Assembly (NCBI GenBank): GCA_001783215.1
Contig: MFRA01000005.1
Span: 146,824 to 210,823 of the forward strand
DNA: 64,000 bases
Reading direction: 5' to 3'
Source of the DNA: Candidatus Magasanikbacteria bacterium RIFOXYD1_FULL_40_23
GTDB lineage: Bacteria > Patescibacteriota > Patescibacteriia > Magasanikbacterales > GWA2-37-8
The position numbers and the translations under genes were made by a program. Positions 4,614-54,984 of the stretch are shown here, in pieces (position 1 is the first letter of the stretch; every line of letters starts with the position of its first letter). The notes under the pieces were generated by a model, which was not told the DNA's origin, searched no databases, and saw only the letters and a program-made list of their open reading frames with translations.

Positions 4614-4700
4614 CTCGAAATGAGTGAGTGAAATATTTAGCTTGCTCAAATATTTTCGAGCGAATGAGAATATATGCGGCGAAGCCCATATTTATTATAG
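4614..4700 (-). promoter_or_regulatory. R2 leader-element copy in reverse orientation (an orphan with no start codon behind it)
   Basis: The reverse complement reads ...tatattctcattcgctcgaaaatatttgagcaagctaaatatttcactcactcatttcgag. This is ~90% identical to the uvrD leader at 25432-25485. Confidence 0.45.
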
Positions 4701-4863
4701 ATATTGACGTGGAGGTTATGGGTGGTTGTTTTTATTATGAGTTATTTTTTAAGAAGGTTTATTTTAAAATTGGTTGGGAGAGCGGCATCGTATTGATACT
4801 CGCTCTCCCCGTCTGATCGAGGTCGCGGCTTTGCCCGCAGAGCAGGCGCGGTCGGCGTAGATC

Positions 4864-5109
4864 TCAATGGGTCTTGTCTCGGAAGTTGCTGGTCGGTTCG
4901 TCGTCGGGCGTCCCGTTGTCGTTCTCCGCATCGTCGCAGTCGGACGTCGGATCCGTTCCGGGCTGGTCGGGCGTCTTGTCGACCGTGGCGTCCTTGTTGG
5001 TGAAAGGCTTCTTGAACTCATGCCTGTCCTTGAGCTCGTCGAAGGACGGATCGGGTTGGTCGGAGAAGGGGAAGCGGGTGTCGTATGCGTGATTCGGCAG
5101 GTGGCTCAT
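4864..5109 (-). CDS. hypothetical small acidic protein (GC-rich)
   Basis: 81-aa ORF with a strong upstream SD (aaggagatacccATG on the minus strand). High GC, D/E/P/T-rich. Confidence 0.45.
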   Translation of the reverse strand: MSHLPNHAYDTRFPFSDQPDPSFDELKDRHEFKKPFTNKDATVDKTPDQPGTDPTSDCDDAENDNGTPDDEPTSNFRDKTH

Positions 5110-5215
5110 GGGTATCTCCTTTTTTCTCTTAACCTAGCAGAATTACGACAAAATGTCACAATTTCACCTAGGTGAAAATGATTATACCTTATTTTGGGTT
5201 TTTTTTCAAGTATCT

Positions 5216-5247
5216 AAAACACCGTCTGGTTAGGCGGTGTTTTTTTC
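5216..5247. terminator. rho-independent terminator hairpin
   Basis: aaaacaccgtctggttaggcggtgttttttt, a perfect stem flanked by A and T runs. Confidence 0.6.
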
Positions 5248-5267
5248 AGGTATAAAAAAATTTTTGC

Positions 5268-5390
5268 TTATCTGCGTTTTTTTGTAGCTCTTTTTTCTAG
5301 CATTGCTCTTTTTGCGGCAAGACGTTTCTTGGTTTTTGGAGAATGTCTTGATTTAGTTCTCTTTTTTAGGCCTGTAGGTCTTTTTGCCAT
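5268..5390 (-). CDS. small highly basic protein (40 aa), possibly ribosomal-like; identity unknown
   Basis: Manual translation gives MAKRPTGLKKRTKSRHSPKTKKRLAAKRAMLEKRATKKRR. It is absent from the ORF track because it is under 60 aa. Confidence 0.35.
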   Translation of the reverse strand: MAKRPTGLKKRTKSRHSPKTKKRLAAKRAMLEKRATKKRR

Positions 5391-5541
5391 ACAAAATTAA
5401 ATTATTTTATTAAGATAAATTAATTATACATTAAATTTCTAAATAACTCAAATGGATTGCATGCTTTATTGTTTTGGTATATTATCTGCCCAAGGCAAGC
5501 TTGGTTGTATATCAGACCAAAACAACAGGAGGGAACCTAAA

Positions 5542-6210
5542 ATGATTCGCACCGCAGACCAGTGGGAAGCGGAATATAAGAACAGGAAAGCTCTTTGGAT
5601 TCACAATGGCAACCCAAGGCAGCCACACCCGATTCTTTCTTCAGGCGACCATTCAAACGGCTTCTTTAATAGTCGTTTGGTAACCAGCGATTCGATGTTG
5701 TTGCACGATGCCACTTCTGATTTGCTTGAATTGTTCGAAGAACATAGAGGGGATTTCTGGCAAGTTGATGGGTGTGTCGGTCCGCAAACCGGCGCCACCA
5801 GATTGGCGCAAGTAGGAAGTGTTTGGGTTAGTGAATATACCCGCCGTCCATGTTTCTTTGCTTCGCCAGCAAAGCACGGAGAAGGCGAAAGTAGGTCTAT
5901 GTTGTTTAGTAAAGAGGAATCAGCCCTTTTGTCTGGTAAAACAGTGCTTCCGTGGGAGGATGTCGTTACCACAGGAGCCAGTGTTGGTTTGATGGTTGAT
6001 GCAGTTGTTAAAAACGGCGGAGTCGTTTTGTCATATATTCTTGCGTTGGTGAACCGATCCAATCTACAAGCAGTAGACGGCAGAAGGATTGTTGCGCTTT
6101 TCAAGCGTCCGAGGTCTATCGAGGCACCCAGCAATTGCAGTCTTTGCAAATTGGGTTCGGAAGCCATTTATCCGAAAGACAATTGGGATCGTTTCAATGA
6201 GTCGTGCTGA
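5542..6210 (+). CDS. phosphoribosyltransferase family protein (orotate-PRTase-like)
   Basis: PRPP-binding motif LPWEDVVTTGASV plus HPILSSGDHSNGFFN. Internal ATG start with an SD (caggagggaacctaaaATG). Moderately GC-rich. Confidence 0.6.
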   Translation: MIRTADQWEAEYKNRKALWIHNGNPRQPHPILSSGDHSNGFFNSRLVTSDSMLLHDATSDLLELFEEHRGDFWQVDGCVGPQTGATRLAQVGSVWVSEYTRRPCFFASPAKHGEGESRSMLFSKEESALLSGKTVLPWEDVVTTGASVGLMVDAVVKNGGVVLSYILALVNRSNLQAVDGRRIVALFKRPRSIEAPSNCSLCKLGSEAIYPKDNWDRFNESC

Positions 6211-6315
6211 GATAAAATGAAGGGGGTTTATACTAAAAGCTCTGTGTACATACTTGTGCATGGAGCTAATTTTTTATTAGGTGATTGTTATGGGGGTAAT
6301 CAATGTAAAGTGTAC

Positions 6316-6344: not shown

Positions 6345-6433
6345 TAATATCATAATTCAAGTTTAATTTTTTGTTCTAGACAAAGAATTAATATAAATCT
6401 TCCCGATCTGTGTTGGGAGATAATTTTAATAAT

Positions 6434-19257: not shown

Positions 19258-19878
19258 TTACTGCGCAAGCAGTGCAGCCTGTCCATCTGCAACTCGCCTG
19301 ATCTCGTCTCGCAACCACGTAGTGCGTGGTTGGTATTGTGGCGGAGTGAGCTGGACCATTCGGTCAAAAAGATGGTAGTAGTGGTCGCGAGTTTCTGCTA
19401 CCTGCTTTTTACGGAACGCTTCATCGGTCTGTGCAAGGTCTCGAAGATTGAAAAGTCTATCGCAACCTTTGATGGCAAGCATTTCCCAATCAATGGATAG
19501 CATTAGACGTTCCAAGTATCCCTCTTCCGGGATCTTGCTTAGACCCTTTACCTTGGTAACCACATTGCTTCCAAATGCATGCTCAATCATTTCAGGTGTT
19601 AGGTCTTCCGTGTCTTCCAGACTATCGTGCAGCAGAGCAGTGATAATCATCTCGGCATCAACGATTTTCACTTCGTCGATCAAGATTAGTGCCGCTCCGC
19701 GCAGGTGTTCGAAATACCGGATTGGTTTCCCTTCATCATCCACGCTCTTGCGAACTTGGGCGCGATGCCCAAACTTTGCCATCATGTAAGCGAATCGAAT
19801 GTCGCACAGTATGCTGGGAGCGAAGAACGGGTTGATACGGCTAAAGAACAGCTCTTTGTTTTCGACGGGCTTCGTCAC
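19258..19878 (-). CDS. HD-domain protein; RelA/SpoT-type (p)ppGpp hydrolase domain (small alarmone hydrolase-like)
   Basis: HRAQVRKSVDDEGKPIRYFEHLRGAALIL...ALLHDSLEDTEDLTPEMIEHAFGSNVVTKVKGLSKI matches the SpoT HD hydrolase motif pattern (HxGQxRK...LLHDxxEDT...FG..V..lV.gvtK). Confidence 0.7.
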   Translation of the reverse strand: MTKPVENKELFFSRINPFFAPSILCDIRFAYMMAKFGHRAQVRKSVDDEGKPIRYFEHLRGAALILIDEVKIVDAEMIITALLHDSLEDTEDLTPEMIEHAFGSNVVTKVKGLSKIPEEGYLERLMLSIDWEMLAIKGCDRLFNLRDLAQTDEAFRKKQVAETRDHYYHLFDRMVQLTPPQYQPRTTWLRDEIRRVADGQAALLAQ

Positions 19879-21773: not shown

Positions 21774-22034
21774 ATGGCCAGTGAAAGTGGAACATTGTAT
21801 GTCGGCGTAACAAACGATTTAACCCGCAGAATTTCAGAGCACAAACAAAATTTAATTGAAGGTTTTACTAAAAAATATAAATGTCATAAATTAGTATATT
21901 ACGAAAACTATTCAGATATAAAACAGGCTATTGCGAGAGAAAAGGAGATAAAAGGATGGTTAAGAAAAAAGAAAGAACAGTTAATTAAAAATATAAATCC
22001 TGGTTGGAAGGATTTAAGTGTAGAGTGGGTGTAA
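21774..22034 (+). CDS. GIY-YIG nuclease family protein (small UPF0213/YhbQ-like); possibly N-terminally disrupted
   Basis: GTLYVGVTNDLTRRISEHKQ...KLVYYE...AIAREKEIKGW. The in-frame upstream codons encode the conserved YYVYI strand, but there is no start codon between it and an upstream TAA. The R3 repeat abuts the gene. Confidence 0.6.
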   Translation: MASESGTLYVGVTNDLTRRISEHKQNLIEGFTKKYKCHKLVYYENYSDIKQAIAREKEIKGWLRKKKEQLIKNINPGWKDLSVEWV

Positions 22035-25200: not shown

Positions 25201-25402
25201 TAAAAAAATTGATTTGGTGATTGGTATTCCTAGTAACACCGAGAAGGCCGGGTTAAGTAATGGCTATTTGGCTAGAAGAAAAGCCATAGATCAGAACATT
25301 TCTCTTATTACTAATTTGGAATTTGCCAGACGTTATGTAAAAGCTATTAGTAAATTTAAAATGAGTGATCTGAAAATAAAAAGCTGGGATGAGTATTTAT
25401 AA
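22208..25402 (+). CDS. carB: carbamoyl-phosphate synthase large subunit
   Basis: 1064 aa. Two ATP-grasp halves (KILILGSGALQIGQAGEFDYSGSQA... and VIVLGSGPYRIGSSVEFDWC...) plus an MGS-like C-terminus. Confidence 0.92.
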   Translation: MIRNIKPKKILILGSGALQIGQAGEFDYSGSQAIKALKEDGIFTVLVNPNIATIQTSDHLADKVYFLPLNIFFVEQVIAKEKPDGILLGFGGQTALNVGVQLYEKGILEKYNVKVLGTQVEVIKDTEDRQLFSNRVAEVGLKVARSVTAGTVQEALDAADKIGYPVMCRVAYALGGLGSGIVQNKAELEEKTNRAFAFTNQVLIEECLYGWKEVEYEIVRDVHDNCITICSMENFDPMGIHTGDSIVVAPVQTLTAKENFNLRAIGIKLIRHLGIIGECNIQYALDPNSGDYRIIEVNARLSRSSALASKATGYPLAFVATKLALGYALNEVENIITKETSACFEPALDYITLKFPRWDLQKFEHVNKVLGTEMKSVGEVMAIGRSFEEVLQKAIRMLDVGMNGLVGNDIDFAELDKEITQPTDKRIFAIVQAIKSGYSIEKVHELSKVDNWFLHKLKNIIDLESKLKNYNLETLPIEVLRPAKQAGFSDKQIAGVIGSVAEAVRAKRKSLGVLPVVKQIDTLAAEYPAKTNYLYLTYNGRENDIVRSTEKQVIVLGSGPYRIGSSVEFDWCCVNSLMSLQKAGYKTIMINCNPETVSTDYDVSDQLYFEELSLEKILDIYEFQQPLGVVVSMGGQTPNNLALKLHNAGVKILGTTPEQIDNAESRHKFSQILDSLEIDQPEWKELTDIDSAKEFAQRVGYPVLVRPSYVLSGAAMSISYSEDDLELFLKKAVDLNKEYPVVISKFITKAREIEMDAVANNGELFCYAISEHLENAGVHSGDATLVFPPQKTYLETTRRLKVIAKEVAKALQITGPFNMQLIAKDNDIKVIECNLRASRSFPFVSKVLKINFIDIATRLMMGESVPKLSRSSFDLDYVGVKASQFSFTRLKGSDPVTRVEMSSTGEVACLGDNLNEAFLKSVISTGFNVEPKSVLLSIGSLDKKTAFLEEAKILQTMGVKIYATTGTGAFLKENNIEAEVLEWNLENGQPNVMSHLSDKKIDLVIGIPSNTEKAGLSNGYLARRKAIDQNISLITNLEFARRYVKAISKFKMSDLKIKSWDEYL

Positions 25403-25408
25403 AATTAT

Positions 25409-25485
25409 AGGGGCTAAAGCCCATATAATCTCATTCGTTCGAAAATATTTAAGCAAGCTAAATATCTTACTCACTCATTTCGATT
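25409..25485 (+). promoter_or_regulatory. R2 leader element (hairpin, TATAAT, CTCATTCG(C/T)TCG(G/A)AAA, AT-rich hairpin, CTCACTCATTTCGA) abutting the uvrD start codon
   Basis: aggggctaaagcccatataatctcattcgttcgaaaatatttaagcaagctaaatatcttactcactcatttcgattATG. Confidence 0.5.
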
Positions 25486-27522
25486 ATGATTGATTTTGTA
25501 AAAGAGCTGAATCAAGAACAGCTAGAAGTAGTTTTACACGGCGATGGGCCGTGTTTAGTTTTGGCTGGCGCCGGGAGCGGCAAAACCAGAGTAATTACTT
25601 ATCGGGTAGCATATCTGTTGGAGCAAGGCGTAGATCCAGAAAATATATTGCTCGTCACCTTTACCAATAAAGCGGCCGACGAAATGATTCGTCGTGTACA
25701 GAGCTTAACCAATTCTCCAAAACGCTTGCCTTGGGCCGGCACGTTCCATCATATTGCCTATAGGATTCTCAAAATTTATGCAGCTATTTTGGGTTACAAA
25801 AGTAATTTTTCGGTATTAGACAGCGATGATAGCGAAACAATTTTAAAGTTATGTGCCAAACCATTTAAATCCGATACGGGTCGAACTAAATTTCCTTCGG
25901 CACGCGTGCTTCAATCTATAATTAGTTTTGCTCGTAATTCCGAAACTACAGTAGAAGATGTATTGGATTTAAAATATCCGCAATGGATGGTTTTTGCCGA
26001 TCAGATAAAAAGCGTGGCACATGAATATGAAGTGAAAAAGAAAGAAGCCAATGCTATGGACTTTGATGATTTGTTGGTAAATTTTTGTAATTTATTAAAT
26101 CACGAACAGGCATTAAAAAAGTATTCGCAGCAGTTTAAATATATTTTGGTAGACGAATACCAAGATACAAATAAAATTCAATCTTCTATAATCAAAAAAT
26201 TGGCTAGTGCGCACGGCAATATGCTTGTGGTGGGCGATGACGCACAAAGTATTTATTCTTTTCGCGCCGCTGACATTGCCAATATTTTGCAATTCGAAAA
26301 AGAATTTCCAAATGCCAAAGTATTTAAATTAGAAACCAATTATCGTTCCACGGCCGAAATTTTAGATGTGGCCAACGACGTTATAGTTAATAATACAAAG
26401 CAATACAAAAAACAATTAAAAACTGTATTAGAAAATGGAGAAAAACCTACGCTTCACCCGCAGATGGACCAATCCAATGAAGCTGAATTTGTAACCGGTA
26501 AAATTTTGGAGCTACTAGACAAAGGCACGCCGGCCAACGAAATTGCAGTTTTGTTTCGCGCGGCGCACCATTCACAGCTTTTGGAAATGGAGTTAGTAAA
26601 AGCCGGGATTATTTATGATTACCGCGGAGGGCTTAGATTTTTTGAACGCGCTCACGTAAAAGATGTTTTGGCATATTTACGAATACTAAATAATTTGACC
26701 GATACAGCCGCGTGGATGCGTGTGCTTATGCACGAAGAGGGAATTGGCGCGGTGGCAGCTAGTAAAATTACTGAAGCATTAAAAAAAGCAACCAACGTGG
26801 AAGATGTGAAAATAATCGGTCAAGAAATTTTGGGAGAGAAAGCCAAAAATGGTTGGAATAATTTTGTGCGCATCTGGGAAAGTATGTTGGGCAAAAGCCG
26901 CACCGATACTTCTGGGCTTATACAATCTGTAATTAATTCTCCGTACAAAGACTATTTAGAAGGAGAATATATAGATAGTAGAGATAGATTAGAAGACATT
27001 GCCCAGTTGCAAGTTTTTGCCGAAAAATATAATGAATTAGAGCAATTTTTGGCCGAAGCTACGCTGCAAGAGGGTTTTGGTGGTGGCAAAGGTGGAAATC
27101 AAAACAGAGAAAGTTCTGGTCCAAAAGTGGTATTGTCTACAATTCATCAAGCCAAAGGGTTAGAATGGGCGGCTGTGTTTATTATCAATTTGGCCTCAGG
27201 TGCTTTCCCAAACGATAGAGCGCTGCACGAAAATAATGGATTAGAAGAAGAACGCCGGTTGCTGTATGTGGCCATAACTCGTGCCAAAAAACATTTGCAC
27301 CTTACGTATCCTATGTCGGGGGGTGGGTTTGGAGATTCACTTGCCGGTCCAAGTATGTTTTTAGGAGAGATTAGTTCGGATTTATTAGAGGATCATTCGC
27401 TTCTTTCTTATGGTAATGGTTTAGTGCTCAACGACGAAGCAGCTGGTGTGACATATATAAATGAAGACAAACCATTGCGTATAAAACCGGGCAGTTTTTT
27501 GCGTGGTTTGGACGATCTTTAG
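25486..27522 (+). CDS. pcrA: ATP-dependent DNA helicase, UvrD/PcrA/Rep family
   Basis: Helicase motif I AGAGSGKTRVITYRVAYLL. The TFTNKAADEM, LVDEYQDTN and NYRST motifs are also present. 678 aa. Confidence 0.85.
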   Translation: MIDFVKELNQEQLEVVLHGDGPCLVLAGAGSGKTRVITYRVAYLLEQGVDPENILLVTFTNKAADEMIRRVQSLTNSPKRLPWAGTFHHIAYRILKIYAAILGYKSNFSVLDSDDSETILKLCAKPFKSDTGRTKFPSARVLQSIISFARNSETTVEDVLDLKYPQWMVFADQIKSVAHEYEVKKKEANAMDFDDLLVNFCNLLNHEQALKKYSQQFKYILVDEYQDTNKIQSSIIKKLASAHGNMLVVGDDAQSIYSFRAADIANILQFEKEFPNAKVFKLETNYRSTAEILDVANDVIVNNTKQYKKQLKTVLENGEKPTLHPQMDQSNEAEFVTGKILELLDKGTPANEIAVLFRAAHHSQLLEMELVKAGIIYDYRGGLRFFERAHVKDVLAYLRILNNLTDTAAWMRVLMHEEGIGAVAASKITEALKKATNVEDVKIIGQEILGEKAKNGWNNFVRIWESMLGKSRTDTSGLIQSVINSPYKDYLEGEYIDSRDRLEDIAQLQVFAEKYNELEQFLAEATLQEGFGGGKGGNQNRESSGPKVVLSTIHQAKGLEWAAVFIINLASGAFPNDRALHENNGLEEERRLLYVAITRAKKHLHLTYPMSGGGFGDSLAGPSMFLGEISSDLLEDHSLLSYGNGLVLNDEAAGVTYINEDKPLRIKPGSFLRGLDDL

Positions 27523-29036: not shown

Positions 29037-29080
29037 CCCGCAATCATAGCGGGGCTGGGGCGGGGTCTTTTTGTTCCCTT
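29037..29080 (+). terminator. hairpin(s) plus T-run
   Basis: cccgcaatcatagcggggctggggcggggtcttttt. Confidence 0.5.
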
Positions 29081-29088
29081 GACATTTT

Positions 29089-29813: not shown

Positions 29814-30290
29814 ATGCGCGGTGGAAAAAAAGATTATCAACGAGTTATTGCTCCAGATCCAAAATACGGCAGTGTGTCACTAGCCAAATTTATCAACCAT
29901 ATAATGATGGGTGGTAAAAAAACAACTGCACAAACAATTGTTTACGATGCTTTTGATAAAATTGCTGAAGCTAAAAAAGACCCGATGAAAACTTTTGAAG
30001 AGGCTTTAAAAACTGTTCAACCTCAAGTAGAAGTAAGATCTCGTAGAGTAGGTGGTGCCAATTACCAGGTACCTATGCCAGTAAGTGCAAGCAGACAAAA
30101 TGCTCTTACTTTCCGCTGGATTGTAGAGGCTGCTCGCAACAAAAAAGGTTCAGCTATGGCCGACAGATTGGCCACAGTTCTTCTTGATAGTGCTCAAGGC
30201 GTTGGTGATGCGATCAAAAAACGCGATGACGTACACAGAATGGCAGAAGCCAACAAGGCCTTTGCTCACTTTGCTAGATTTGCGAAATAG
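29814..30290 (+). CDS. rpsG: 30S ribosomal protein S7
   Basis: 158 aa with the S7 family sequence ([12 protein letters not shown]...). Confidence 0.95.
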
Positions 30291-30362
30291 AGGCTCCGCC
30301 TATATTTACTCATTCGCTCGGAAAAACAAAACAATTTGTTTTTCTCTCACTTATTTCGTAAA
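30291..30362 (+). promoter_or_regulatory. R2 leader element upstream of fusA
   Basis: aggctccgcctatatttactcattcgctcggaaaaacaaaacaatttgtttttctctcacttatttcg. Confidence 0.5.
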
Positions 30363-30400
30363 TAGTTTTTTTCAATCAACATATTAAATAAAATAATTTT

Positions 30401-32534: not shown

Positions 32535-32563
32535 TTATCCACATAGGCTCAATAGTGAATTTA

Positions 32564-32572
32564 TGGTATAAT
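32564..32572 (+). promoter_or_regulatory. extended -10 promoter (TGgTATAAT)
   Basis: ttatggtataat, ~30 nt upstream of the MKREKFF start of the giant ORF. Confidence 0.35.
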
Positions 32573-32602
32573 TCTTTCGTAAAGAAACCCTCTTTTATTC
32601 TT

Positions 32603-35600
32603 ATGAAAAGGGAAAAATTTTTTAGTTTGTATCCTGCTCTTATCAAAAAAAGATTAAAGAATTTGTTTTTGTTACTTAATTTCAAACATCGCTCCCTCCA
32701 CTTATTTAAAAAAAGACAATTTCACGCTACGGTGGCCGGTCTTTTGCTTGTAGTTATTTTGGTAAATGTATTTCAGCCTTGGTCAGACGAAATTGCTCAA
32801 GGTGCAACTTATACTTTTGTACAAAGCAGTTGGAGTGGGGGAGTTAGCGCTTCGGTTCCTCTACATCCTACCAACCAAACTAGCTGGACAAATTTTTCTA
32901 CTAGCACAAACACCTTCACTACAGGTACTACCACAGTTACCATAGCCAGTACCACCTATAGCTCTACTGATGACGGTACCTTTACCTCTACCGGTAGTGC
33001 AACCGGGGGTGGTTTTAGCAATGGTGTTACCTCTACTGTGGCTGTCTCTGGTAGTGGCGCATCCGCTGTAATTAAATTATCAGGTGGTGTAACTACGATA
33101 AATCGGGTTACTGCCACTTCTTCAAATACTGGTACGAGCGCTAACTTTCACGGTGCTTCTCAGATGATTGGTGCTTCAGGGTCAGACTACTTATATTTTG
33201 TAGAAGCTGCCAATGAGGGGAGAGCGTTACGCCGCTATTCCATTTCCGGAAATTCGTGGACAGATTTAGCGGCTTATACATACGCTTATTTTGGTGCTCA
33301 ATTACTTTGGAATGGTACCGACGATTATATGTATCTAGCAGAAGGTCAAAGTAATGCCTTTACTCGTTACTCTATCTCCGGAAATTCGTGGTCATCTATG
33401 GCGAATATACCAGCTGCCTTGCCTACAAGCATTACTCAAACTGCGGCCCTGCGCTATGGAACAGAAGATTATATATATCTTTGGAGAGGTGCCGGACAGA
33501 CAGCATTTTATCGTTATTCAATTAGTGGCGATAGTTGGAGTACCCTCGATGCATTACCAGCTGCGGCTGGCGTTGGTATTCAAGCTATCAGAGATGCAGA
33601 TAGCAATTTTATTTATGTTGCTAGCGGGGTCAGTACAAATTTTTATCGTTACAATATATCTGCAAATACAACTTCTGCGATGACAGCTATTCCAGCATCC
33701 CTTACCGGTATACAGTCTTACGCTCTCCATGATGAAGGTAGTGATTATATTTATCTTTTAGCAAATGATGGTTTTTATAGATATTCTATTTCCGGTAATT
33801 CATGGTCGACTATGGCTAGCGCCGCGTCGGTTAATCCAGATTTTGGTTCAACATTAATCCATAGCGCAGGAGAAGATGTTATATATGTAGCAGGTGATTG
33901 GGACTGTTGTTCAATTGTAAAATTATGGGGATATTCTATCGCAGGTGATTCTTGGACATCATATCATACAATTACAGCTCATTCGGGTGGTTATGGTTCT
34001 CCAAATAAAACAGCTTACCGAAGAGCGGGTGATGACTATTTTTACTTTTTCACTGCCAACCAAGATAATGAGTTGTTTAAATTTACAATAAGCCAAACCG
34101 TTTATAACTCTTCTGGTAATTTTACCTCTGCTGCTATGGATTTGGGTGTTGCCAAAATGAATTCTTTTTCATGGAGCAGTACCACGCCTTCGGGGGTAGG
34201 TAGCAATTCCATCCAATTCCAGCTTGCGGCCAATAATGATAATAGTACATGGAGTTTTGTGGGGCCGGACGGTACTAGCGGAACATATTTTACAACCAAT
34301 GGCACGACGGTTTTTCCATCTTCATTGCAACAAAATCTTCGCTATTGGAAATACAAAGCGTATTTGAGTACAGCCGACACTAGTGTAACCCCAGTGTTAA
34401 ACAGTGTTACTTTTGGTTACTCTTCTTATGCTGCCACAAGCTCGCTTATTTCTTCTATATATGATACAGCCGATCCAACCAATGTAGTGGCCAGTATTGC
34501 TTGGACTGAATATGAGCCAACTAGCACCACAGTCAAATTTCAATTACGAACAGGCGCTAGTTCGTCTAGTGTGGCTTCTGCTACCTGGATGGGTCCGGAC
34601 GGTACAAATTCTTCATACTTTACCACTTTTGGTGGCGAGACAACTACTTCCACCATGCGTGATGGCTCAAGCGATCAGTATTTCCAGTACAAAGTATTTT
34701 TAGAAACAACAAACTCTTCATACACTCCAACACTTTCGAGTGTTACAGTTACCTATGTAGTTAATGCTGCTCCAGAGATTCAAAATGTTTTGGCTAGCCA
34801 GAGCGCTACTGGCACAGTCTCTATTAGCTATCAGGCACGAGACTCAGACACAGATACAGGTACAGTAAACCCTGGCTATGTTAGTTCCACCTTTGAATAT
34901 TTAGATGCAAACGGTGCTTATCAAACTATCCCTGCAGGCCAACTTTCGGCTGGAGCAAATAGTGGTATAGCGGTAGATGATGTAAATTGGACTACAAATA
35001 CTGTTACTTGGACACCGGCATCAGGTTTAAGTGTGGCTGCTAGTAGAATTAGAGTAACAATAAATGATAACGAAGCAGCTAATAACACCACTTCTACTAT
35101 TTCAGATACTTTCCAAATAGATAGCGTTTCACCAGCTTCGGGTGCGATAGTTGTAGATGGATCTCAAGTGCCGGCTGTTGTTACCCTTACAGCCACCGAT
35201 AGTTCTTCTTTGTACATGAAAGTTTCGGAGAATAGCACTTTGTCGGATGTTTCTAGTTGGTCCGCTCTTACTGCTACCACCTCTATTACACTTACTGCCA
35301 ACCCAGCAACAGTTTATGTACAATTTAAAGACGCTTTTAACAATACGTCTAGTATTTTTAGTGCTACTACTCCTAACACGCCAAGCAGTACGATAGTTCA
35401 AGATATTTCTAACGTTTTAAACGGGGCTACTGACTACCGTTTGTTTGTGGCTTGGAGAGTAATTACTACTCCAGTGCCAGGTTTTGCAAATTATAGAATT
35501 TATAGATCTTTAGATCAATCTGATTGGACTCCGATTGCTACCAACACTTCTATAAACGACAATTATACTGCCGACAGCTCTATATCTTCTAACACACTTT

Positions 35601-38600
35601 ATTACTATAAAGTAAAATCCACTGACTCTTCCGGTAATGTTTCTGTATTTTCTTCTATCGTAAATGCTCGCGCTAACGGGGATCAAGATGCGGGTGAAGG
35701 TGGTGGTGGTACGGGAATAGAAAGCGCGCCCGTTATTACATCTGTGGCAACATCATCTGTTTCGCCAACTTCAATTACCATCACTTGGAATACGGATGTT
35801 TTATCAAATTCCGTAGTTGGTTTTTCAACTATTCTTGGTAATTTTACCGACAATGTATTATCCGTAGGTGGTATGTTTGATAACCCTAGTTCTGTAGGCG
35901 CGCATACTGTAGTTTTAGGTGGTCTCACTCCAAATACTACTTATTATTTTAATGTAAAATCCACTGCTGCTGGTGGCGCGTCTGCCTCTTCTTCGGATGG
36001 TGGTAATGGTTTTATTGTTAGAACCTTAAATGGTCCTGTTATTTCCGGTGTTTCGGCTCCAGAAGTTTATAATACTTTTGCCAGAGTAGTTTGGACCACT
36101 TCGGAAAACGCAAATAGTTATGTAATTTATTCTACTTCCACCGATTTATCTAACCCTATAGTTACTAGTACTATTGTAACGTTTGGGACTTCGCACGACC
36201 TAACCCTAACCGGTTTAACGGCTGGTACAAATTATTATTATTATGTTCAGTCGGCGAATGTTGGGATGATTACGACAACCGATAAAAACATAGTAAATGG
36301 TATTCCAGAATACTTTAGTTTGGCGACTACTTTAGATGTTACCGCTCCTACAATTTCTTCTATTGCCACCACTAGCGTCGGTAATAATTCTGCCAACGTT
36401 ACTTGGGTTACAAACGAAAATGCAGATTCGCAGATAGCTTATGGTACTACGACTAATTATGGCACCACCACTACTTTAGATTCTACTTTTACGGCCCAAC
36501 ACTTGGTTACGCTTTCTGGTTTAGCTTCTTCCACTGTCTATCATTTTAAAATTTTATCACGAGATAGAAATGATAATTTAGCAGAATCCTCCGATCAAAT
36601 TTTCGAAACAGCTGCAGCTGCCGATACAATCGCTCCGACAATATCTTCGGTTGCCACTTCAAGTGTTACTCTTACTAGCTTTACAGTTACTTGGTCTACC
36701 AACGAAGTCGGTTCTTCTATCGTGGAGTATGGCACAAACACGTCTTCTTACAATAGTTTAGCTGGTTCAAATACAGATTCAGTTACGTCTCATTCGGTGA
36801 CTGTAAGCAGTCTAAGTGGTAATGCTACTTATTATTTTCGAGTTAGATCAGCAGATTCGGCTGGTAATTCTGCCACAGATAGCAACGGCGGTGCTGGCTG
36901 GGAAGTTAGAACAGTTGCCGACACTACCGCTCCAACCATTTCCAATATTAGTACGCTGGTAAACAATACAACTACCCAAATCACTTGGACCACCAACGAA
37001 GCGGCTAATTCCGAAATTAATTATGGTTCAACTTCAAGCTCTCTTAACACAACTGCTTCCAGCTCAACTTTGCAGACTAACCACGCCATTACCATTACCG
37101 GTTTAACAGCCGACACTACTTATTATTTCCGAGTTAGATCTACAGACGCTTCAAGCAATGTTGCGACCGACGATAATGGCGGCGCTGCTTATAGCTTTAC
37201 CACATTGCTTACTCCGGGTGGTACAACTATTATTATTACCGGTGGTTCTAGCGCTCAGCGTGGAGATAGAGAGCCCCCTATAATTAGCAATATTGAAATA
37301 GTAAATGTTACAGCCAATTCGGCTAGCGTGACTTGGAGAACCAGCGAAGACGGAAATTCTTTGGTTAGATTTGGTGTCAGCGAAACTTATGGTACTTTAG
37401 TGGGTAATGATTTGGAATTATTAACTTCAAATCACACTGTTAAGATGTCTAATTTAAGAGCTGCTCAAACCTATCATTTGAGAGCTATTACCTATGATGA
37501 AGCAGGTAATAGAACCGAATCAAATGATCAAGCGTTTACCACTTTAAATATTGATGGAACAGAAGCTCCGCCTAGTACTAGTACAGCAGAGGAGATTATA
37601 GAGGAAGAAAAAGAAATACAATCTCCACAAACAGAACAATTTATATCGGATGCTTTAAAAAAAGCTTCTAGTGAGTCCTTAGAAAAATTCTTGAGGGATA
37701 TAGCTGCCAATCCATTGCTCAAAGATATTCCTGAAGATAAATTTATCCAGGCACTGCTTGAAATGACAAGTCGTGTAATTGAACCTCCAACTATTGTGGG
37801 TATTAAACCAACAGTAGATGTTCAAGGAACTACTGCAATTATCAAATGGTCTACAGACAAGAAATCTTCTTCAGAAATAAATTATGCTAAAGAAAGTGAA
37901 TACAAACCTAACGACTCTACCCCATACACCAACGCAGCTGTTAGCCCGGATGAATTTAGTGTAAATCACAGCGTAAAATTAACTGGTCTTGATCCGGGTG
38001 TTCTTTATCACTTCAAAGTTATATCCAAAGGCCTTATTGGTGCACCAGCTATGAGTGGTGATTATACATTCCAAACCACCGGTGATTTACCAGTTATTTC
38101 CGACATAAGAGTTACCAGACCAAAAGATTTACAATCATCTATCGTTGTAAATTGGAAGACAAATGTTTCTACTGCTGGTAGCGTAGAATATAGAAACGCT
38201 AAATCTGGTCAATCTCTAACTCAAGGTGATTCAGCGCTGCTCATAAATCACGAAGTCACGTTGAAGGGTCTTGAGGGCGGTGTAAATTATACTTTGGTAC
38301 TTAAAGGTAAAGATGAGTTTAGTAATGAAGTATCCAGTCTTCCTATAACTTTCTCTACTACTTTAGATAAGGCCGAACCAACCATATCCAAACTTTCATC
38401 AGAATCCACATTGTATCCAGGCAAGGATTCCAAAGTTCAAACTATTATTTCTTGGGAAACAGACGAACCAGCAACCTCTCAGGTTTTCTACCAAGAAGGT
38501 GCGGCTACAGACAAAGTTACAGCCCTTCCATTAGACAGTTCCTTAAACACTCGTCATATTGTGGTAGTAACCAAGTTTAAACCAGGCACAGTTTATAAGT

Positions 38601-38749
38601 ATTGGGTAGAATCCAAAGATTTGGCCGGTAATGCTGGCAAATCGGAAGTGTTCTCCATCCTGACGCCTCAAGAAAAAGAAACCATTGTTGATATAATTAT
38701 TAACAATTTCCAATCAGTATTTGGTTGGACCAAGAATATAGGCATCTAG
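32603..38749 (+). CDS. giant membrane-anchored cell-surface protein (~2050 aa). It has an N-terminal TM anchor, six YRYSISGNSW beta-propeller-like repeats and many fibronectin-III / purple-acid-phosphatase-N-like repeats.
   Basis: TM segment ATVAGLLLVVILVNVF. Repeats include YRYSISGNSWTDL, TRYSISGNSWSSM, YRYSISGDSWSTL, YRYSISGNSWSTM and WGYSIAGDSWTSY. At least 12 repeats of the type 'TAPTISS.ATTSV...AN.TW.TNE.A.S...YGTT..Y' are present. The protein is Thr/Ser-rich. Confidence 0.7.
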   Translation: MKREKFFSLYPALIKKRLKNLFLLLNFKHRSLHLFKKRQFHATVAGLLLVVILVNVFQPWSDEIAQGATYTFVQSSWSGGVSASVPLHPTNQTSWTNFSTSTNTFTTGTTTVTIASTTYSSTDDGTFTSTGSATGGGFSNGVTSTVAVSGSGASAVIKLSGGVTTINRVTATSSNTGTSANFHGASQMIGASGSDYLYFVEAANEGRALRRYSISGNSWTDLAAYTYAYFGAQLLWNGTDDYMYLAEGQSNAFTRYSISGNSWSSMANIPAALPTSITQTAALRYGTEDYIYLWRGAGQTAFYRYSISGDSWSTLDALPAAAGVGIQAIRDADSNFIYVASGVSTNFYRYNISANTTSAMTAIPASLTGIQSYALHDEGSDYIYLLANDGFYRYSISGNSWSTMASAASVNPDFGSTLIHSAGEDVIYVAGDWDCCSIVKLWGYSIAGDSWTSYHTITAHSGGYGSPNKTAYRRAGDDYFYFFTANQDNELFKFTISQTVYNSSGNFTSAAMDLGVAKMNSFSWSSTTPSGVGSNSIQFQLAANNDNSTWSFVGPDGTSGTYFTTNGTTVFPSSLQQNLRYWKYKAYLSTADTSVTPVLNSVTFGYSSYAATSSLISSIYDTADPTNVVASIAWTEYEPTSTTVKFQLRTGASSSSVASATWMGPDGTNSSYFTTFGGETTTSTMRDGSSDQYFQYKVFLETTNSSYTPTLSSVTVTYVVNAAPEIQNVLASQSATGTVSISYQARDSDTDTGTVNPGYVSSTFEYLDANGAYQTIPAGQLSAGANSGIAVDDVNWTTNTVTWTPASGLSVAASRIRVTINDNEAANNTTSTISDTFQIDSVSPASGAIVVDGSQVPAVVTLTATDSSSLYMKVSENSTLSDVSSWSALTATTSITLTANPATVYVQFKDAFNNTSSIFSATTPNTPSSTIVQDISNVLNGATDYRLFVAWRVITTPVPGFANYRIYRSLDQSDWTPIATNTSINDNYTADSSISSNTLYYYKVKSTDSSGNVSVFSSIVNARANGDQDAGEGGGGTGIESAPVITSVATSSVSPTSITITWNTDVLSNSVVGFSTILGNFTDNVLSVGGMFDNPSSVGAHTVVLGGLTPNTTYYFNVKSTAAGGASASSSDGGNGFIVRTLNGPVISGVSAPEVYNTFARVVWTTSENANSYVIYSTSTDLSNPIVTSTIVTFGTSHDLTLTGLTAGTNYYYYVQSANVGMITTTDKNIVNGIPEYFSLATTLDVTAPTISSIATTSVGNNSANVTWVTNENADSQIAYGTTTNYGTTTTLDSTFTAQHLVTLSGLASSTVYHFKILSRDRNDNLAESSDQIFETAAAADTIAPTISSVATSSVTLTSFTVTWSTNEVGSSIVEYGTNTSSYNSLAGSNTDSVTSHSVTVSSLSGNATYYFRVRSADSAGNSATDSNGGAGWEVRTVADTTAPTISNISTLVNNTTTQITWTTNEAANSEINYGSTSSSLNTTASSSTLQTNHAITITGLTADTTYYFRVRSTDASSNVATDDNGGAAYSFTTLLTPGGTTIIITGGSSAQRGDREPPIISNIEIVNVTANSASVTWRTSEDGNSLVRFGVSETYGTLVGNDLELLTSNHTVKMSNLRAAQTYHLRAITYDEAGNRTESNDQAFTTLNIDGTEAPPSTSTAEEIIEEEKEIQSPQTEQFISDALKKASSESLEKFLRDIAANPLLKDIPEDKFIQALLEMTSRVIEPPTIVGIKPTVDVQGTTAIIKWSTDKKSSSEINYAKESEYKPNDSTPYTNAAVSPDEFSVNHSVKLTGLDPGVLYHFKVISKGLIGAPAMSGDYTFQTTGDLPVISDIRVTRPKDLQSSIVVNWKTNVSTAGSVEYRNAKSGQSLTQGDSALLINHEVTLKGLEGGVNYTLVLKGKDEFSNEVSSLPITFSTTLDKAEPTISKLSSESTLYPGKDSKVQTIISWETDEPATSQVFYQEGAATDKVTALPLDSSLNTRHIVVVTKFKPGTVYKYWVESKDLAGNAGKSEVFSILTPQEKETIVDIIINNFQSVFGWTKNIGI

Positions 38750-45007: not shown

Positions 45008-45640
45008 ATGAAAGTAAAAGTTTACAATCTAGAAGGTAAAGAAACTGGTGAGATGAATCTGCTCGACAGCGTGTTTGGAGTAAAAATCAAACCAGAAGTT
45101 GTACACGAAGTTTTTGTAGCTTTACAAAACAATCAAAGAGAACCTTGGGCTGACACCAAAAGTAAAGGTGAAGTACGAGGTGGTGGCAAGAAACCTTGGC
45201 AACAAAAAGGTACTGGCCGCGCTCGCCATGGTTCTATCCGTTCTCCAATTTGGAAAGGCGGCGGTGTAACCTTTGGTCCTTTATCAATCCGCAATTACAA
45301 GACCAAAATTAACAAAAAAACCAAACAGTTAGCCCTAAAGATGTGCTTGAGCGATCGCGCTAGTAGCAACGCTTTGTGGGTATTTGAAGATTTTAATTTT
45401 TCCGAACCAAAAACAAAATTGTTTGTAAAATTTCTTACAGCTTTGCCAGCAAAAGCAAAATCATTTTTATTGCTTACACCAGGCAAAAATGATAATGTAA
45501 TCCGCATGACAAGAAATTTAAAATCAGTAAAAACTGCTAGAGTTGAAGATATAAATGTAATGGATGTATTATCAAAATCAGTTGTACTTACCAACAAAGC
45601 AGGTGCAGAAAAGTTAGAAGCAGCTTTAAGTAAAGTTTAA
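45008..45640 (+). CDS. rplD: 50S ribosomal protein L4
   Basis: L4 family sequence (KPWQQKGTGRARHGSIRSPIWKGGGVTFGP). Confidence 0.92.
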   Translation: MKVKVYNLEGKETGEMNLLDSVFGVKIKPEVVHEVFVALQNNQREPWADTKSKGEVRGGGKKPWQQKGTGRARHGSIRSPIWKGGGVTFGPLSIRNYKTKINKKTKQLALKMCLSDRASSNALWVFEDFNFSEPKTKLFVKFLTALPAKAKSFLLLTPGKNDNVIRMTRNLKSVKTARVEDINVMDVLSKSVVLTNKAGAEKLEAALSKV

Positions 45641-45647
45641 TAATCAA

Positions 45648-45723
45648 TATATGCGAAGCATATATTCTAATTCGCTCGGAAATAATTAAATAAATTTAAT
45701 AATTCCACTCACTTAATTACGAA
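45648..45723 (+). promoter_or_regulatory. R2 leader element upstream of rplW
   Basis: atatatgcgaagcatatattctaattcgctcggaaataattaaataaatttaataattccactcacttaattacgaatATG. Confidence 0.5.
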
Positions 45724-45724
45724 T

Positions 45725-46222
45725 ATGGGTTTGATAAATAATTGGTTAAACAAGAAAGATAAAGAACAGTTGAGCAAGACTGGCGAGAAAAAATCTCCAG
45801 CTACTGCTGCTGTGGCCAAAACTAAAACCAAATCCACCGCTCGTGTTTCCGAAAAAGAAAAAACAGAGAAGAAAGAACACGATCACAAAGAGCACGAACC
45901 AAAACAAGTTAAATCCACTGTAAAGGTTTCTACACACAGTACATCCTTTAGAGTTTTAATAAAACCACTTGTTACCGAAAAGAGTGCGATTGCAGAAAGC
46001 AAGAATAAATACAGTTTCTTGGTAGCTAAAGCTGCAAATAAGAATCAAGTAAAAACAGCTGTTGCTGAAATTTACGGAGTACAACCTACACAAGTAAACA
46101 TTGCTAATGTAGAAGGACGCGCAGTGCGTTTCGGAAGATCTGCCGGTCGTCGCGGAGATTATAAAAAAGCAATTGTTACTTTGCCAGCAGGTAAAACAAT
46201 AGATATTCACACTGGAGTTTAA
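45725..46222 (+). CDS. rplW: 50S ribosomal protein L23 with a ~70-aa Lys-rich N-terminal extension
   Basis: The L23 core is FRVLIKPLVTEKS...AVAEIYGVQPTQVNIANV. No alternative in-frame start codon lies between the annotated ATG and the core. Confidence 0.85.
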   Translation: MGLINNWLNKKDKEQLSKTGEKKSPATAAVAKTKTKSTARVSEKEKTEKKEHDHKEHEPKQVKSTVKVSTHSTSFRVLIKPLVTEKSAIAESKNKYSFLVAKAANKNQVKTAVAEIYGVQPTQVNIANVEGRAVRFGRSAGRRGDYKKAIVTLPAGKTIDIHTGV

Positions 46223-47081: not shown

Positions 47082-47426
47082 ATGTCTAGAAGTTTAAAAA
47101 AAGGCCCTTACGTTGATCCGAGAGTTCTGAACAAAGTAGAAAAGATGAAGGCCGCTGGAAAAAGACAACCAATAAAGACTTGGTCAAGAGCATGTGTAAT
47201 TTCTCCGGAAATGGTAGCTCAAACTTTTTTGGTTCACAATGGTAAAGATTTCTTAACTGTTTTGGTTGATGAAAATATGGTAGGCCACCGCTTGGGTGAG
47301 TTTGCTCCTACCAAGAAATTTGTTCGCCATGGTGGTAAGATGGCTAAAGATCAAGAAGGGGCAGCTGCCGCAGCTGCAGCCGCTGATTCCAAACCAGCCG
47401 CTAAAGCAGGAGAAAAAAAGAAATAA
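47082..47426 (+). CDS. rpsS: 30S ribosomal protein S19 with an Ala/Lys-rich C-terminal tail
   Basis: [12 protein letters not shown]...VHNGKDF; tail [22 protein letters not shown]. Confidence 0.92.
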
Positions 47427-47431
47427 GCAAA

Positions 47432-47500
47432 GCTTGAAATTACGTCGGGGTTCGTAAATAAGAAAGCATTCTTATTTAGCTCACCCCTAGCAATTATAAT
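47432..47500 (+). promoter_or_regulatory. R1 leader element upstream of rplV
   Basis: gcttgaaattacgtcggggttcgtaaataagaaagcattcttatttagctcacccctagcaattataat. Confidence 0.55.
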
Positions 47501-52965: not shown

Positions 52966-52984
52966 TTTAGGTTAATTTTCAAAT

Positions 52985-53425
52985 ATGTCTTTACATATAC
53001 ATACAATCGGCCCAGCCAAAGGATCTAAGTTCGCTAAAAAAGTAGTGGGCAGAGGTAGTGCGTCTGGTCTTGGTACTACTGCCGGTCGTGGTGGTAAGGG
53101 TCAAACAGCTAGATCAGGTGGAAGCAGTGGAAATGTCCGCCGTGGTTTTAAGTTTCAATTGCAATCTACTCCAAAACTTCGTGGTTTTACTGGTATAAAC
53201 AAGAAACCATCCGAAGTTTATTTGTCTGATTTAGAAAATAAATTTAAAGACGGAGAAGTTGTAAACCTTGCTTCCTTAAAAGAAAAAGACCTCATTAATT
53301 CTTCTGCTAAATCCGCTAAAGTTTTATCTACTGGCGAGATTACCAAGAAATTATCTGTAGAAGGAGTAGCTTGCACTGCAGGCGCAGCCACCAAGATCAA
53401 AGCAGTAGGCGGAGAAGTCAAATAA
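52985..53425 (+). CDS. rplO: 50S ribosomal protein L15
   Basis: Gly/Arg-rich N-terminus GRGSASGLGTTAGRGGKGQ. Confidence 0.92.
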   Translation: MSLHIHTIGPAKGSKFAKKVVGRGSASGLGTTAGRGGKGQTARSGGSSGNVRRGFKFQLQSTPKLRGFTGINKKPSEVYLSDLENKFKDGEVVNLASLKEKDLINSSAKSAKVLSTGEITKKLSVEGVACTAGAATKIKAVGGEVK

Positions 53426-53499
53426 TGATAAAATGGTAAAGCTGATTGTGTTGGTCAAGTGGAATGGTTTACCAGTTTAATCACCTTCATCAATTATTT

Positions 53500-54774
53500 A
53501 TGTGGGAAAAAATACAACAAGTTTGGAAAATTAAAGATATTAGAAATAAAATTTTATTTGTTGTAGGCGCGCTCGTAATCTTCAGACTAGTGGCCCACAT
53601 TCCAATTCCAGGTGTAAATTTAGCAAACTTACGCCAATTTTTGGCAGGTAATCAAATCTTTGGCTTGTTAGATGTATTCTCCGGCGGTACAATGAGTAAT
53701 TTCTCTATCGTAATGTTGGGTGTTGGTCCATATATCACTTCTTCCATTATCTTCCAGCTACTTGCTATGATTGTGCCGAAATTAGAGGAGCTGTCCAAAG
53801 AAGGTGAATCAGGCCAGCAAAGAATAAATAGTTATACTAGATTATTGGCTGTGCCGCTTGCTTTTGTACAATCCTACGCCATGATCAAGATTTTAAATAG
53901 ACCAGGGCTTCCAATAATTACCGATTTAACCTTCTTCCGTTTGGTTACCATCATGATGACCATTACCGCCGGTACTATGTTTTTGATGTGGATTGGTGAA
54001 TTAATCTCTGAAAAGAAAGTTGGCAACGGCATATCACTGCTTATTTTTGCCGGTATCGTATCTAGTTTCCCTGGCGCTATTCGTAATTTTTTCCTCAACT
54101 ATAATTCTGCTGATTTTTATATCTTTGTATTATTTGCAGTTTTGGCAGTGCTTACAGTGGTAGGTGTTGTATTTATAAACGAAGGACAAAGAAACATTCC
54201 TGTAAATTATGCTAAGCAAATGCGCGGCACTCATATGTATGGTGGTAACTCTACCCACTTGCCATTACGCGTAAACATGTCTGGTGTTATCCCAATCATC
54301 TTTGCTATTTCACTTATGGTTTTTCCATCGCTTATTGCCCAATTCTTTATTCAAGCACAAACCGCTTGGATAGCTAGTGCGGCAGCAGGCACTATCGCTT
54401 TGTTCCAAAACCAATTATTCTACGGCGTAGTTTATTTCTTGTTAGTATTTGGATTTACCTATTTCTACACATCTGTAATTTTCCACCCTCAAAAAATGGC
54501 GGAAAACTTGCAGAAACAAGGTGGTTTTATTCCTGGTATTCGCCCAGGGCTAGAAACCGAAAAGTATCTTGGTCAAACTATGAACCGTATAAATCTGACC
54601 GGCGCCTTATTCTTGGGTGTAATCGCTATCCTGCCACTGCTTGTACAATATTTTATGGGCACAACCAACTTGGCTATTGGTGGTACTAGTTTGCTTATCG
54701 TAGTTTCTGTAGCAATTGAAATATCTAAACAAATTAGTTCTCAACTAACCATGCACGCTTACGACAATGTTTAG
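53500..54774 (+). CDS. secY: preprotein translocase subunit SecY
   Basis: 10 TM helices; NIPVNYAKQ and PLRVNMSGVIP motifs. The start is taken as MWEKIQQ. Confidence 0.9.
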   Translation: MWEKIQQVWKIKDIRNKILFVVGALVIFRLVAHIPIPGVNLANLRQFLAGNQIFGLLDVFSGGTMSNFSIVMLGVGPYITSSIIFQLLAMIVPKLEELSKEGESGQQRINSYTRLLAVPLAFVQSYAMIKILNRPGLPIITDLTFFRLVTIMMTITAGTMFLMWIGELISEKKVGNGISLLIFAGIVSSFPGAIRNFFLNYNSADFYIFVLFAVLAVLTVVGVVFINEGQRNIPVNYAKQMRGTHMYGGNSTHLPLRVNMSGVIPIIFAISLMVFPSLIAQFFIQAQTAWIASAAAGTIALFQNQLFYGVVYFLLVFGFTYFYTSVIFHPQKMAENLQKQGGFIPGIRPGLETEKYLGQTMNRINLTGALFLGVIAILPLLVQYFMGTTNLAIGGTSLLIVVSVAIEISKQISSQLTMHAYDNV

Positions 54775-54819
54775 TCTGAGGCCAAGATTGAAGAAACCTT
54801 TTTGAAATGATAAACTAAG

Positions 54820-54842
54820 AGGGCTGGAAAGCCCTTTTTAGT
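54820..54842 (+). terminator. rho-independent terminator after secY
   Basis: agggctggaaagcccttttt. Confidence 0.6.
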
Positions 54843-54873
54843 TTAAATTAACTTAAAATAGTAAATAGTAGGA

Positions 54874-54984
54874 TAGGGGCTAAAGCCACATATATACTCA
54901 TTCACTCGGAAATATCCAGATTAAATATTTATAACTCGCAAGCGATTATAAATATTTCATTGTCTATTTCCCTCATTCATCTCG
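54874..54984 (+). promoter_or_regulatory. R2 leader element upstream of adk
   Basis: ggataggggctaaagccacatatatactcattcactcggaaatatccagattaaatattt...ccctcattcatctcgtatATG. Confidence 0.5.

Follow-up and report, generated by a model that had tools for sequence, protein, structure and literature searches.

The 64,000-nucleotide stretch of Candidatus Magasanikbacteria bacterium RIFOXYD1_FULL_40_23 analysed here (contig MFRA01000005.1, positions 146,824 to 210,823; hereafter the window) carries five copies of R2, a short, non-autonomous, lineage-restricted, hairpin-forming interspersed repeat of groundwater Ca. Magasanikbacteria and close Patescibacteria, which is situated in transcribed leaders and intercistronic spacers. 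R2 measures ~70-130 bp and consists of a small upstream hairpin, H1, and one long irregular hairpin, in which the outer helix P1, a central helix and the apical hairpin hp2 are stacked. Its fold is optimised on the complement of the mRNA strand, and close relatives have gained or lost copies precisely where the intergenic spacer meets the ATG. The reading favoured here, with a probability of roughly 0.55, is a repeat resembling miniature inverted-repeat transposable elements (MITEs) or REPINs, the purine-rich single strand of which matters for copying or homogenisation, and which survives where the mRNA carries the weak strand and where stop and start codons are restored. Among bacterial interspersed hairpin repeats, R2 is unusual in its fixed start-codon register, its three invariant tandem purine mismatches and its strand-asymmetric fold.

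Within the window, the core CTCATTCGCTCGGAAA with at most two mismatches occurs five times, at 4653-4668 on the reverse strand and at 25430, 30309, 45667 and 54897 on the forward strand; the chance expectation is 0.49, and five occurrences were reached in 0 of 100 shuffles. A covariance model derived from the copies of other genomes, run with its filters off, returned exactly five matches with E-values from 8e-20 to 5e-10, while all its remaining matches in the window had E >= 0.007, none being comparable to the five R2 copies. Core count and covariance model agree with the preliminary description of this DNA, which had placed five copies at these sites, and the order of parts that it gave is likewise present in every copy: a GC hairpin, a TATAWW box, a conserved box, and a variable AT-rich hairpin with a second box. 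The products encoded downstream of the four forward copies are UvrD, EF-G, ribosomal protein L23 and adenylate kinase. The 3' box taken alone is weakly enriched in the window (13 matches against 6.8 expected).

Beyond the window, a scan of one genome per GTDB species with the query ATATWWWCTMATTCRYTCGRAAA, for which the chance expectation was estimated at ~2, matched at least 106 stretches. Among the matches listed, 105 of 107 possess the complete R2 architecture, the two exceptions being an Acinetobacter contig and a Sulfurimonas contig, and the 34 carrier assemblies belong to Ca. Magasanikbacteria, for the most part, and to Patescibacteria. The covariance model found 121 matches in 735 kb of element-bearing loci and only 2 in the ribosomal-protein loci of 46 relatives and outgroups, which totalled 611 kb. 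The nearest R2 neighbour of a copy came from the same assembly in 28 of 111 cases, compared with 4.8 expected, and tandem and nested copies are present. GCA_001783315.1 (MFRD01000036, Rifle aquifer) and several groundwater assemblies encode a UvrD protein identical to that of the window. Many of the R2-bearing metagenome-assembled genomes (among loci L007-L112; the loci compared are designated by L numbers) are titled "uncultured Gammaproteobacteria" or "Candidatus Udaeobacter"; these are probably mislabelled, because the element and the gene content are held in common with Magasanikbacteria.

No genuine R2 copy was found in viral contigs, and a viral origin was set aside, the single match being a chance one without the rest of the element. 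Rfam, searched in both gathering-threshold and E-value modes over the window and 18 loci, returned only tRNAs, with the best match at the element at E ~1. Kinship with TIGR-Tas arrays or C/D-box RNAs was also rejected, as it amounted to weak Rfam noise, with neither C/D boxes nor arrays. The literature searched holds no description of an R2-type element.

The anatomy of the long hairpin is best seen from its outer end. P1 pairs TAWWWC with GWWWTA and includes the A and the T of the start codon. Covariation links the variable bases of ATATAWWW-C to the trinucleotide that separates ...CATTTCG from the ATG, and perfect complementarity is observed in 84 of 108 copies (pairings ATT/AAT 40, AAT/ATT 19, ATA/TAT 17 and AAA/TTT 7). 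Considered as a terminal inverted repeat, P1 is 95% paired and covarying; it is short and variable, and H1 lies outside it. In a 64-sequence alignment, P1 and hp2 together are 92.4% paired, compared with 76.3% in column shuffles (0 of 500 as high) and at most 49% with slid partners. The hairpin hp2 is rooted in GAAA/TTTC and displays many compensated changes; a separate long-range helix CGGAAA/TTTCG, considered as a candidate, was found to coincide with the base of hp2. The pair of conserved CT-rich boxes does not form an open internal loop; the two face each other as the central helix, with two single-base bulges, in which three invariant tandem mismatches are situated between four Watson-Crick positions. 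Pair 41-79 covaries (G-C 96, A-T 20, A·C 7 and G·T 0 in 123 copies; Fisher p = 1e-14 in 108 copies), the pairs 37-83, 38-82 and 45-75 are constant Watson-Crick pairs, and a correlated double change, CTAATTCG together with ...CATTACG, provides two extra central-helix pairs.

H1 exists in two architectures, TATAT-GGGC-loop-GCCC-ATATA or TTATATC-nnnn-GATATAA. Both utilize the ATATA of P1 as their 3' strand; hence, H1 and P1 compete. H1 was judged by per-sequence folding, the fixed-column test being weak because the length and register of H1 vary. In minimum-energy folds of the mRNA strand with H1 included, H1 forms in 77 of 107 copies and P1 in 12 of 107. An ATR target-site duplication, or a guide-target role of the upstream TATAT, was discarded on inspection, since changes in the 3' strand are not followed by the constant upstream strand.

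The central helix distinguishes sharply between the two strands. Its mismatches are invariant pyrimidine-pyrimidine oppositions on the mRNA strand and three tandem purine-purine (G·A-type) oppositions on the complementary strand. Position 42-78 reads C·A in 79 copies, T-A in 35 and C-G in 7 on the mRNA strand, corresponding to G·U, A-U and G-C on the complementary strand, so that it is canonical in 121 of 123 copies on the latter versus 42 of 123 on the former; at position 34-87, 14 copies have C·A and no copy has T·G. Over twelve central positions, the mRNA strand holds 108 A·C-type cells against 5 G·T-type cells, or 29 against 5 without position 42-78. The folding energy is lower on the complementary strand in 106 of 108 copies, with means of -17.4 kcal/mol versus -12.0 kcal/mol on the mRNA strand. 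The window copies show the same bias; for the uvrD copy, the values are -22.6 (z -4.0) on the complementary strand versus -15.4 (z -2.6) on the mRNA strand. P1 and hp2 are strand-neutral, and their G·U versus A·C counts are uninformative, as P1 contains only A/T and hp2 is balanced. Covariation of canonical pairs on the mRNA strand, which a structured mRNA leader would display, was not found in the central helix.

A rival reading is that the host uses the complementary strand, or the duplex, directly: as a one-way block or terminator that keeps antisense or convergent transcription out of gene starts, or as a structured DNA site (cruciform or hairpin) for a nucleoid, replication or recombination protein. 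The strong fold on that strand is consistent with this: a long hairpin is succeeded by a GC hairpin whose triloops are of the C(GNA)G type, and this in turn by a T-rich stretch. Furthermore, about 10% of the copies are orphans with no gene behind them, several of which abut the stop codon of a convergent gene (L065, L074, L105 and L076, and likewise the orphan of the window), where that strand is transcribed. However, more than 80% of the copies have neither a convergent gene nor a known antisense transcript; the T-tract that follows H1 on the strand concerned is a weak one; relatives do without the element; and we know of no protein that binds R2. A host function of this kind is considered distinctly unlikely.

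Comparison of orthologous junctions was carried out between element flanks and other loci, and with relatives retrieved via ribosomal protein L5 (86-91% protein identity). Presence/absence polymorphism was found for the rplW, adk and fusA copies and for nine further pairs. The rplW copy is absent in L113, L114 and L118, where the junctions read TAG-TTTATTAT-ATG, TAA..TTCTGT-ATG and TAA-ATTAT-ATG, respectively, and the same MGL(I/L).N protein start is kept. The adk copy is absent in L113, L116 and L118 and present as a diverged copy in L114, and the fusA copy is absent at the same junction in L036. In all three cases, the empty rplD-rplW, secY-adk and rpsG-fusA junctions possess the same start codons after plain AT-rich spacers of 5-15 nt. 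L104 compared with L063 (flanks 88% identical) shows a clean 69-nt insertion with a 4-nt TATA junction ambiguity, and between L089 and L056 (flanks 98.8% identical) the difference consists of the element, the start codon and codon 2. In L075, the upstream gene now ends at a TAA in the loop of H1. R2 copies can, in this manner, give the upstream gene a new stop codon, within H1, and the downstream gene a new ATG. Loss is indicated as well: L041 keeps an H1 remnant, AAGCCAT, which points to deletion. R2 is not, as a rule, conserved upstream of the same genes in relatives, with some junctions filled in several genomes; at the ssb, trx, rpsC and rpsT junctions so filled, the boxes are invariant and hp2 differs, its changes being compensated.

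With respect to genes, the position of R2 is strikingly regular. An ATG at a fixed register opens an open reading frame (ORF) of at least 50 codons in 81 of 108 copies, in agreement with the preliminary view of R2 as a true multi-copy family in leader position, and orthologous N-termini (SSB, S3, L24 and thioredoxin) confirm the fixed-register ATGs as true starts. The upstream neighbour is co-directional in 82 copies; its stop codon is situated inside H1 in 16 of these, and at most 10 nt from H1 in many others. The 76 downstream proteins scanned contain 91 Pfam families, including SSB, thioredoxin, L18, L24, RecA, enolase and tRNA synthetases, and this breadth indicates no regulon. The sole signal in the downstream coding regions is a stretch at codons 2-6 that is rich in A and poor in G, a typical mark of real starts.

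This register is one argument for a host cis-regulatory mRNA leader acting as a three-strand switch, in which either the upstream TATAT (a) or the start-codon region (c) would pair with ATATAWW (b), thereby exposing or sequestering the AUG, while the CU-rich boxes would serve as binding sites for a global factor (the 30S subunit, S1, an RNase or a repressor), so that the translation or processing of ~8% of genes of an organism lacking Shine-Dalgarno sequences would be controlled. In its favour, the AUG lies at a fixed register inside P1, the a:b and b:c complementarities are both conserved, with the ATATA strand paired in both H1 architectures, the element is transcribed from upstream promoters, and the boxes are nearly invariant across the assemblies listed as carriers. 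Likewise, codons 2-6 resemble those of genuine well-expressed starts, and the changes in hp2 are compensated between orthologous copies. Against it, the central helix is canonical on the wrong strand, with the excess of A·C-type cells and the prevailing C·A at 42-78 described above; P1 is rarely present in mRNA-strand minimum-energy folds once H1 is included; close relatives use the same ATG for the same genes without the element; no common function unites the downstream genes; and the orphans have no gene to regulate. Such a switch, although the main competitor of the MITE/REPIN-like reading, is regarded as a tentative and unlikely explanation of the family. Both readings may hold together, since co-option of a tolerated repeat is conceivable. 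The 16S gene, sought for pairing of its 3' end with the boxes, is not present in the fetched loci.

A related and similarly doubtful possibility is a start-codon-seeking "portable leader", the purine-rich strand of which, with its three tandem G·A motifs, would be recognised by a putative enzyme. The element would integrate precisely 5' of the AUG, its TAT pairing with the ATG, and would then deliver a stop codon, a spacer and an initiation region independent of Shine-Dalgarno (SD) sequences to ~8% of genes, and may double as an H1/P1 translational switch.

The MITE/REPIN-like reading is, in detail, as follows. R2 would spread, or be homogenised within genomes, via a single-stranded purine-rich strand (DNA or RNA) that a putative trans-acting enzyme recognises. 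Persistence would be possible almost only in the orientation that places the weakly folding, G-poor, CU-rich strand in the host mRNA, where the element would be harmless and would serve as the translation-initiation region of an SD-less gene, whereas the opposite orientation would survive mainly behind convergent genes, as exemplified by the window orphan.

Several observations weigh against this MITE/REPIN-like reading. No mobilising enzyme, transposase or other, turned up, no genome-wide search having been made, and filled/empty pairs other than L104/L063 reveal no common target or duplication. No natural source of the single-stranded complementary strand was identified: the downstream coding regions contain no conserved antisense promoter signal, and according to GC skew the complementary strand would be the leading-strand template in the window. 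The presence of ~76% of the copies in exact ATG register is hard to explain by random insertion and tolerance alone. Moreover, the orthologous ssb copies of L068 and L087, with invariant boxes and a compensated hp2, argue for selection on the copies or gene conversion.

R2 lacks the anatomy of a promoter. The preliminary description had suggested that TATAWW is a -10 element; the covariation of its variable bases with those in front of the ATG makes the box a helix strand, no -35 element stands at the right spacing, and canonical promoters are located upstream. The portable promoter cassette that would follow from the earlier proposal, with TATAWW as the -10, transcription starting in the first conserved box, and hp2 and the second box as the 5' untranslated region, is accordingly very improbable. 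It is true that TATAAT, TATATT and similar forms are good -10 hexamers, and that -10-only promoters are possible in an AT-rich genome. Nonetheless, covariation of WWW with the bases before the ATG is unlike a pure -10; the upstream composition profile holds no -35 signal, H1 occupying that space; and only 2 of 106 copies, which count in the cassette's favour, offer TATAWW a -35-like hexamer at a distance of 17 nt (at least 10/12). The majority of copies follow immediately on the stop codon of a co-directional gene within ribosomal-protein operons. Strong canonical promoters (TTGACA-17-TATAAT) stand 27-80 nt upstream of 13 copies for which one is required, mostly copies with a long upstream spacer or a divergent upstream gene, and the filled locus L052 and the empty locus L074 share the same TTGACA-17-TAGAAT promoter upstream. 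A check with Rfam, made as a test of promoter function, found no non-coding RNA genes downstream of the ATG-less copies.

The secY-adk spacer of the window may be a similar case. Upstream of the adk copy it contains a promoter-like TTGAAG-17-TGaTAAACT (54788-54816), followed by a hairpin, GGGCTGGAAAGCCC (54821-54834), and T5. Promoter-like site and hairpin are conserved in L113, L114, L116 and L118, with or without R2, so that the spacer keeps a site of its own, which also speaks against a cassette; the site matches the consensus at only 8/12, below the promoter-scan threshold, and rests on this conservation. The arrangement may represent a terminator of secY that overlaps with a promoter of adk, or else an attenuator. 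Being located downstream of ordinary promoters, R2 copies are co-transcribed with the genes that they precede. A further proposed instance of an R2-motif promoter, at 29089-29117, turned out to be an ordinary TTGACA-17-TATACT promoter at 29079-29107, which has 11 nt in common with R2 by chance and is devoid of the other R2 parts.

The uvrD copy (25399..25491, forward strand) gives the highest covariance-model score (87.3 bits, E 8e-20) and is situated between the carB stop codon (25400-25402) and the uvrD ATG (25486-25488). Its H1, TTATA-GGGGC-TAAA-GCCC-ATATA, occupies 25405-25427; the 5' strand of P1 lies at 25424-25430 and the 3' strand at 25482-25488, with the start codon within; the 5' box spans 25430-25445, hp2 ~25442-25469 and the 3' box 25470-25482. 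The fusA copy (30278..30367, forward strand; 71.5 bits) has its core at 30309-30324, its 3' box at 30346-30358 and the P1 variant ATTTAC/GTAAAT. The rpsG stop codon TAG (30288-30290) touches its H1, AGGC-TCC-GCCT. This copy contradicts the earlier statement that all forward copies abut an ATG: the fusA ATG at 30401 is not fused to it, the copy ending ~37 nt upstream.

The rplW copy (45636..45730, forward strand; 64.5 bits) is situated between the rplD stop codon (45638-45640) and the rplW ATG (45725). Its H1 is ATATGC-GAA-GCATAT, and its core at 45667-45682 is the CTAATTCG variant, accompanied by the correlated ...ATTACG 3' box. The downstream product, ribosomal protein L23 (45725-46222), carries a 76-residue N-terminal extension, MGLINNWLNKK..., which is real and not an artefact of an element-derived ATG, because it is kept in close relatives. 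The adk copy (54874..54990, forward strand; covariance-model match 54884-54993, 50.2 bits) contains a core at 54897-54912, a 59-nt hp2 and a 3' box at 54972-54984, and ends in the adk ATG at 54988.

The orphan copy (4607..4699, reverse strand; 85 bits) has its core at 4653-4668, its 3' box at 4616-4628 and the terminus ...CGAGTATA, behind which there is neither a start codon nor a credible ORF. An alignment gives ~91% identity with the uvrD copy over ~66 nt, bearing out the near-identity, without a start codon, that had been noted before. The suggestion that it acts as an antisense promoter is not supported, as it has the same promoter-less anatomy and faces the 3' end of ORF 4092-4538, like several orphans at convergent genes elsewhere. 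It lies 77 nt beyond the stop codon of this convergent ORF, the transcript of which would carry the strongly folding strand. Neither ORF 4092-4538 nor the ORFs adjoining the orphan have a Pfam match. The adjoining region 4700-5200 is GC-rich and without a credible ORF.

The gene starts of the window mostly lack SD sequences, as had been remarked earlier for the genome. A clear GGAGG-type SD sequence was seen at few ORFs (4092-4538, 19258-19878 on the reverse strand, and 61128-61385), most window genes being without one; these three ORFs and the GC-rich region 4700-5200 may be foreign DNA. Absence of the anti-SD motif has been reported for about half of Parcubacteria (PMC9297842), which fits the SD-less gene starts in the window. 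The further proposal that modular structured leaders replace SD sequences is not supported at the rplD-rplW, secY-adk and rpsG-fusA junctions, where relatives without the element keep the start codons.

Among known systems, R2 stands closest to Correia elements, REP/REPINs and MIRUs and, in its RNA architecture, to the RNase III sites of T7. Three of five features of MITEs were found: dispersed copies, terminal inverted repeats and presence/absence polymorphism. Correia elements of Neisseria (CREE/NEMIS) are non-autonomous, ~100-150 bp long, with terminal inverted repeats starting in TATAG and TA-rich insertion sites; their inverted repeats are constant and 26 bp long, they carry an IHF site, and they can create promoters. 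R2 resembles them as a hairpin that is mostly situated just upstream of genes, is co-transcribed, and varies in presence between strains; unlike them, it has a covarying outer helix of 6-7 bp, invariant tandem mismatches and a start codon inside the helix, it lacks evidence for promoters, and a TA duplication is not proven. Repetitive extragenic palindromic (REP) sequences and REPINs are mobilised by RAYT transposases, number tens to hundreds per genome, mostly follow gene 3' ends, and presumably act as single-stranded hairpins. With these, R2 shares the character of a short extragenic palindromic repeat with genome-specific flavours and a hairpin kept by compensatory change. However, neither strand of the R2 consensus contains a GTAG-type tetranucleotide (a RAYT gene was not searched for), R2 stands at start codons with a strong orientation bias, and its mismatches are invariant and not accidental.

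Mycobacterial MIRU elements are tandem direct repeats of 46-101 bp that encode small ORFs; they are not hairpins and possess no strand-asymmetric fold. R2 resembles them in occupying intercistronic operon spacers and overlapping the upstream stop and the downstream start, whereby operon expression is preserved. The RNase III sites in the early mRNA of phage T7 are immobile and few in number, and their fold forms on the mRNA strand. R2 is similar in that an irregular hairpin with a conserved internal region is positioned just upstream of cistron starts, but its helix is canonical on the opposite strand.

Variation within hp2 includes a recurrent 59-nt version (tatccag...ctcgcaagcg...ctggcta), observed in L007, L013, L029, L037, L044, L049, L056, L075, L089 and L102 and at 54913-54971 of the window; it predominates in some assemblies (CAZUFD01) and resembles an additional small palindrome that has been inserted into the loop of hp2. 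In addition, the window contains another leader family, R1 (47413-47498, ~56480-56540 and 61560-61621), which has the 3' half of R2, GTTCGTAAAT-hairpin-ATTTAGCTCACCCCTAGCAATTATA. R1 matches the R2 covariance model weakly (E 0.013), and in L103 (3539-3632) an R1-like unit is nested inside the hp2 of an R2 copy. R1 may be a diverged relative of R2. Two further features of the window were recorded. An ORF of 2064 residues (32555-38749), with faint fn3/Ig-like matches, separates fusA from the tuf-S10 cluster; it is unusual for the str-S10 gene order to be interrupted in this way. Between carA and carB, an 86-residue ORF with a GIY-YIG domain (21774-22034) may be a small homing-endonuclease-like gene.

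The genomes of the Candidate Phyla Radiation are ~1 Mb in size and are thought to be streamlined, and the literature searched contains no description of interspersed hairpin repeats in them. In the window, a single such family is found directly before the start codon of about one gene in 12, including genes in ribosomal-protein operons, and the strand asymmetry of its design suggests a way in which operons can harbour a selfish repeat. For annotation, caution is advisable, as the TATA-like box is the strand of a helix and very probably not a promoter. Meanwhile, R2 makes new stop and start contexts, and if it also tunes translation, it would bear on how initiation proceeds in SD-less Parcubacteria.

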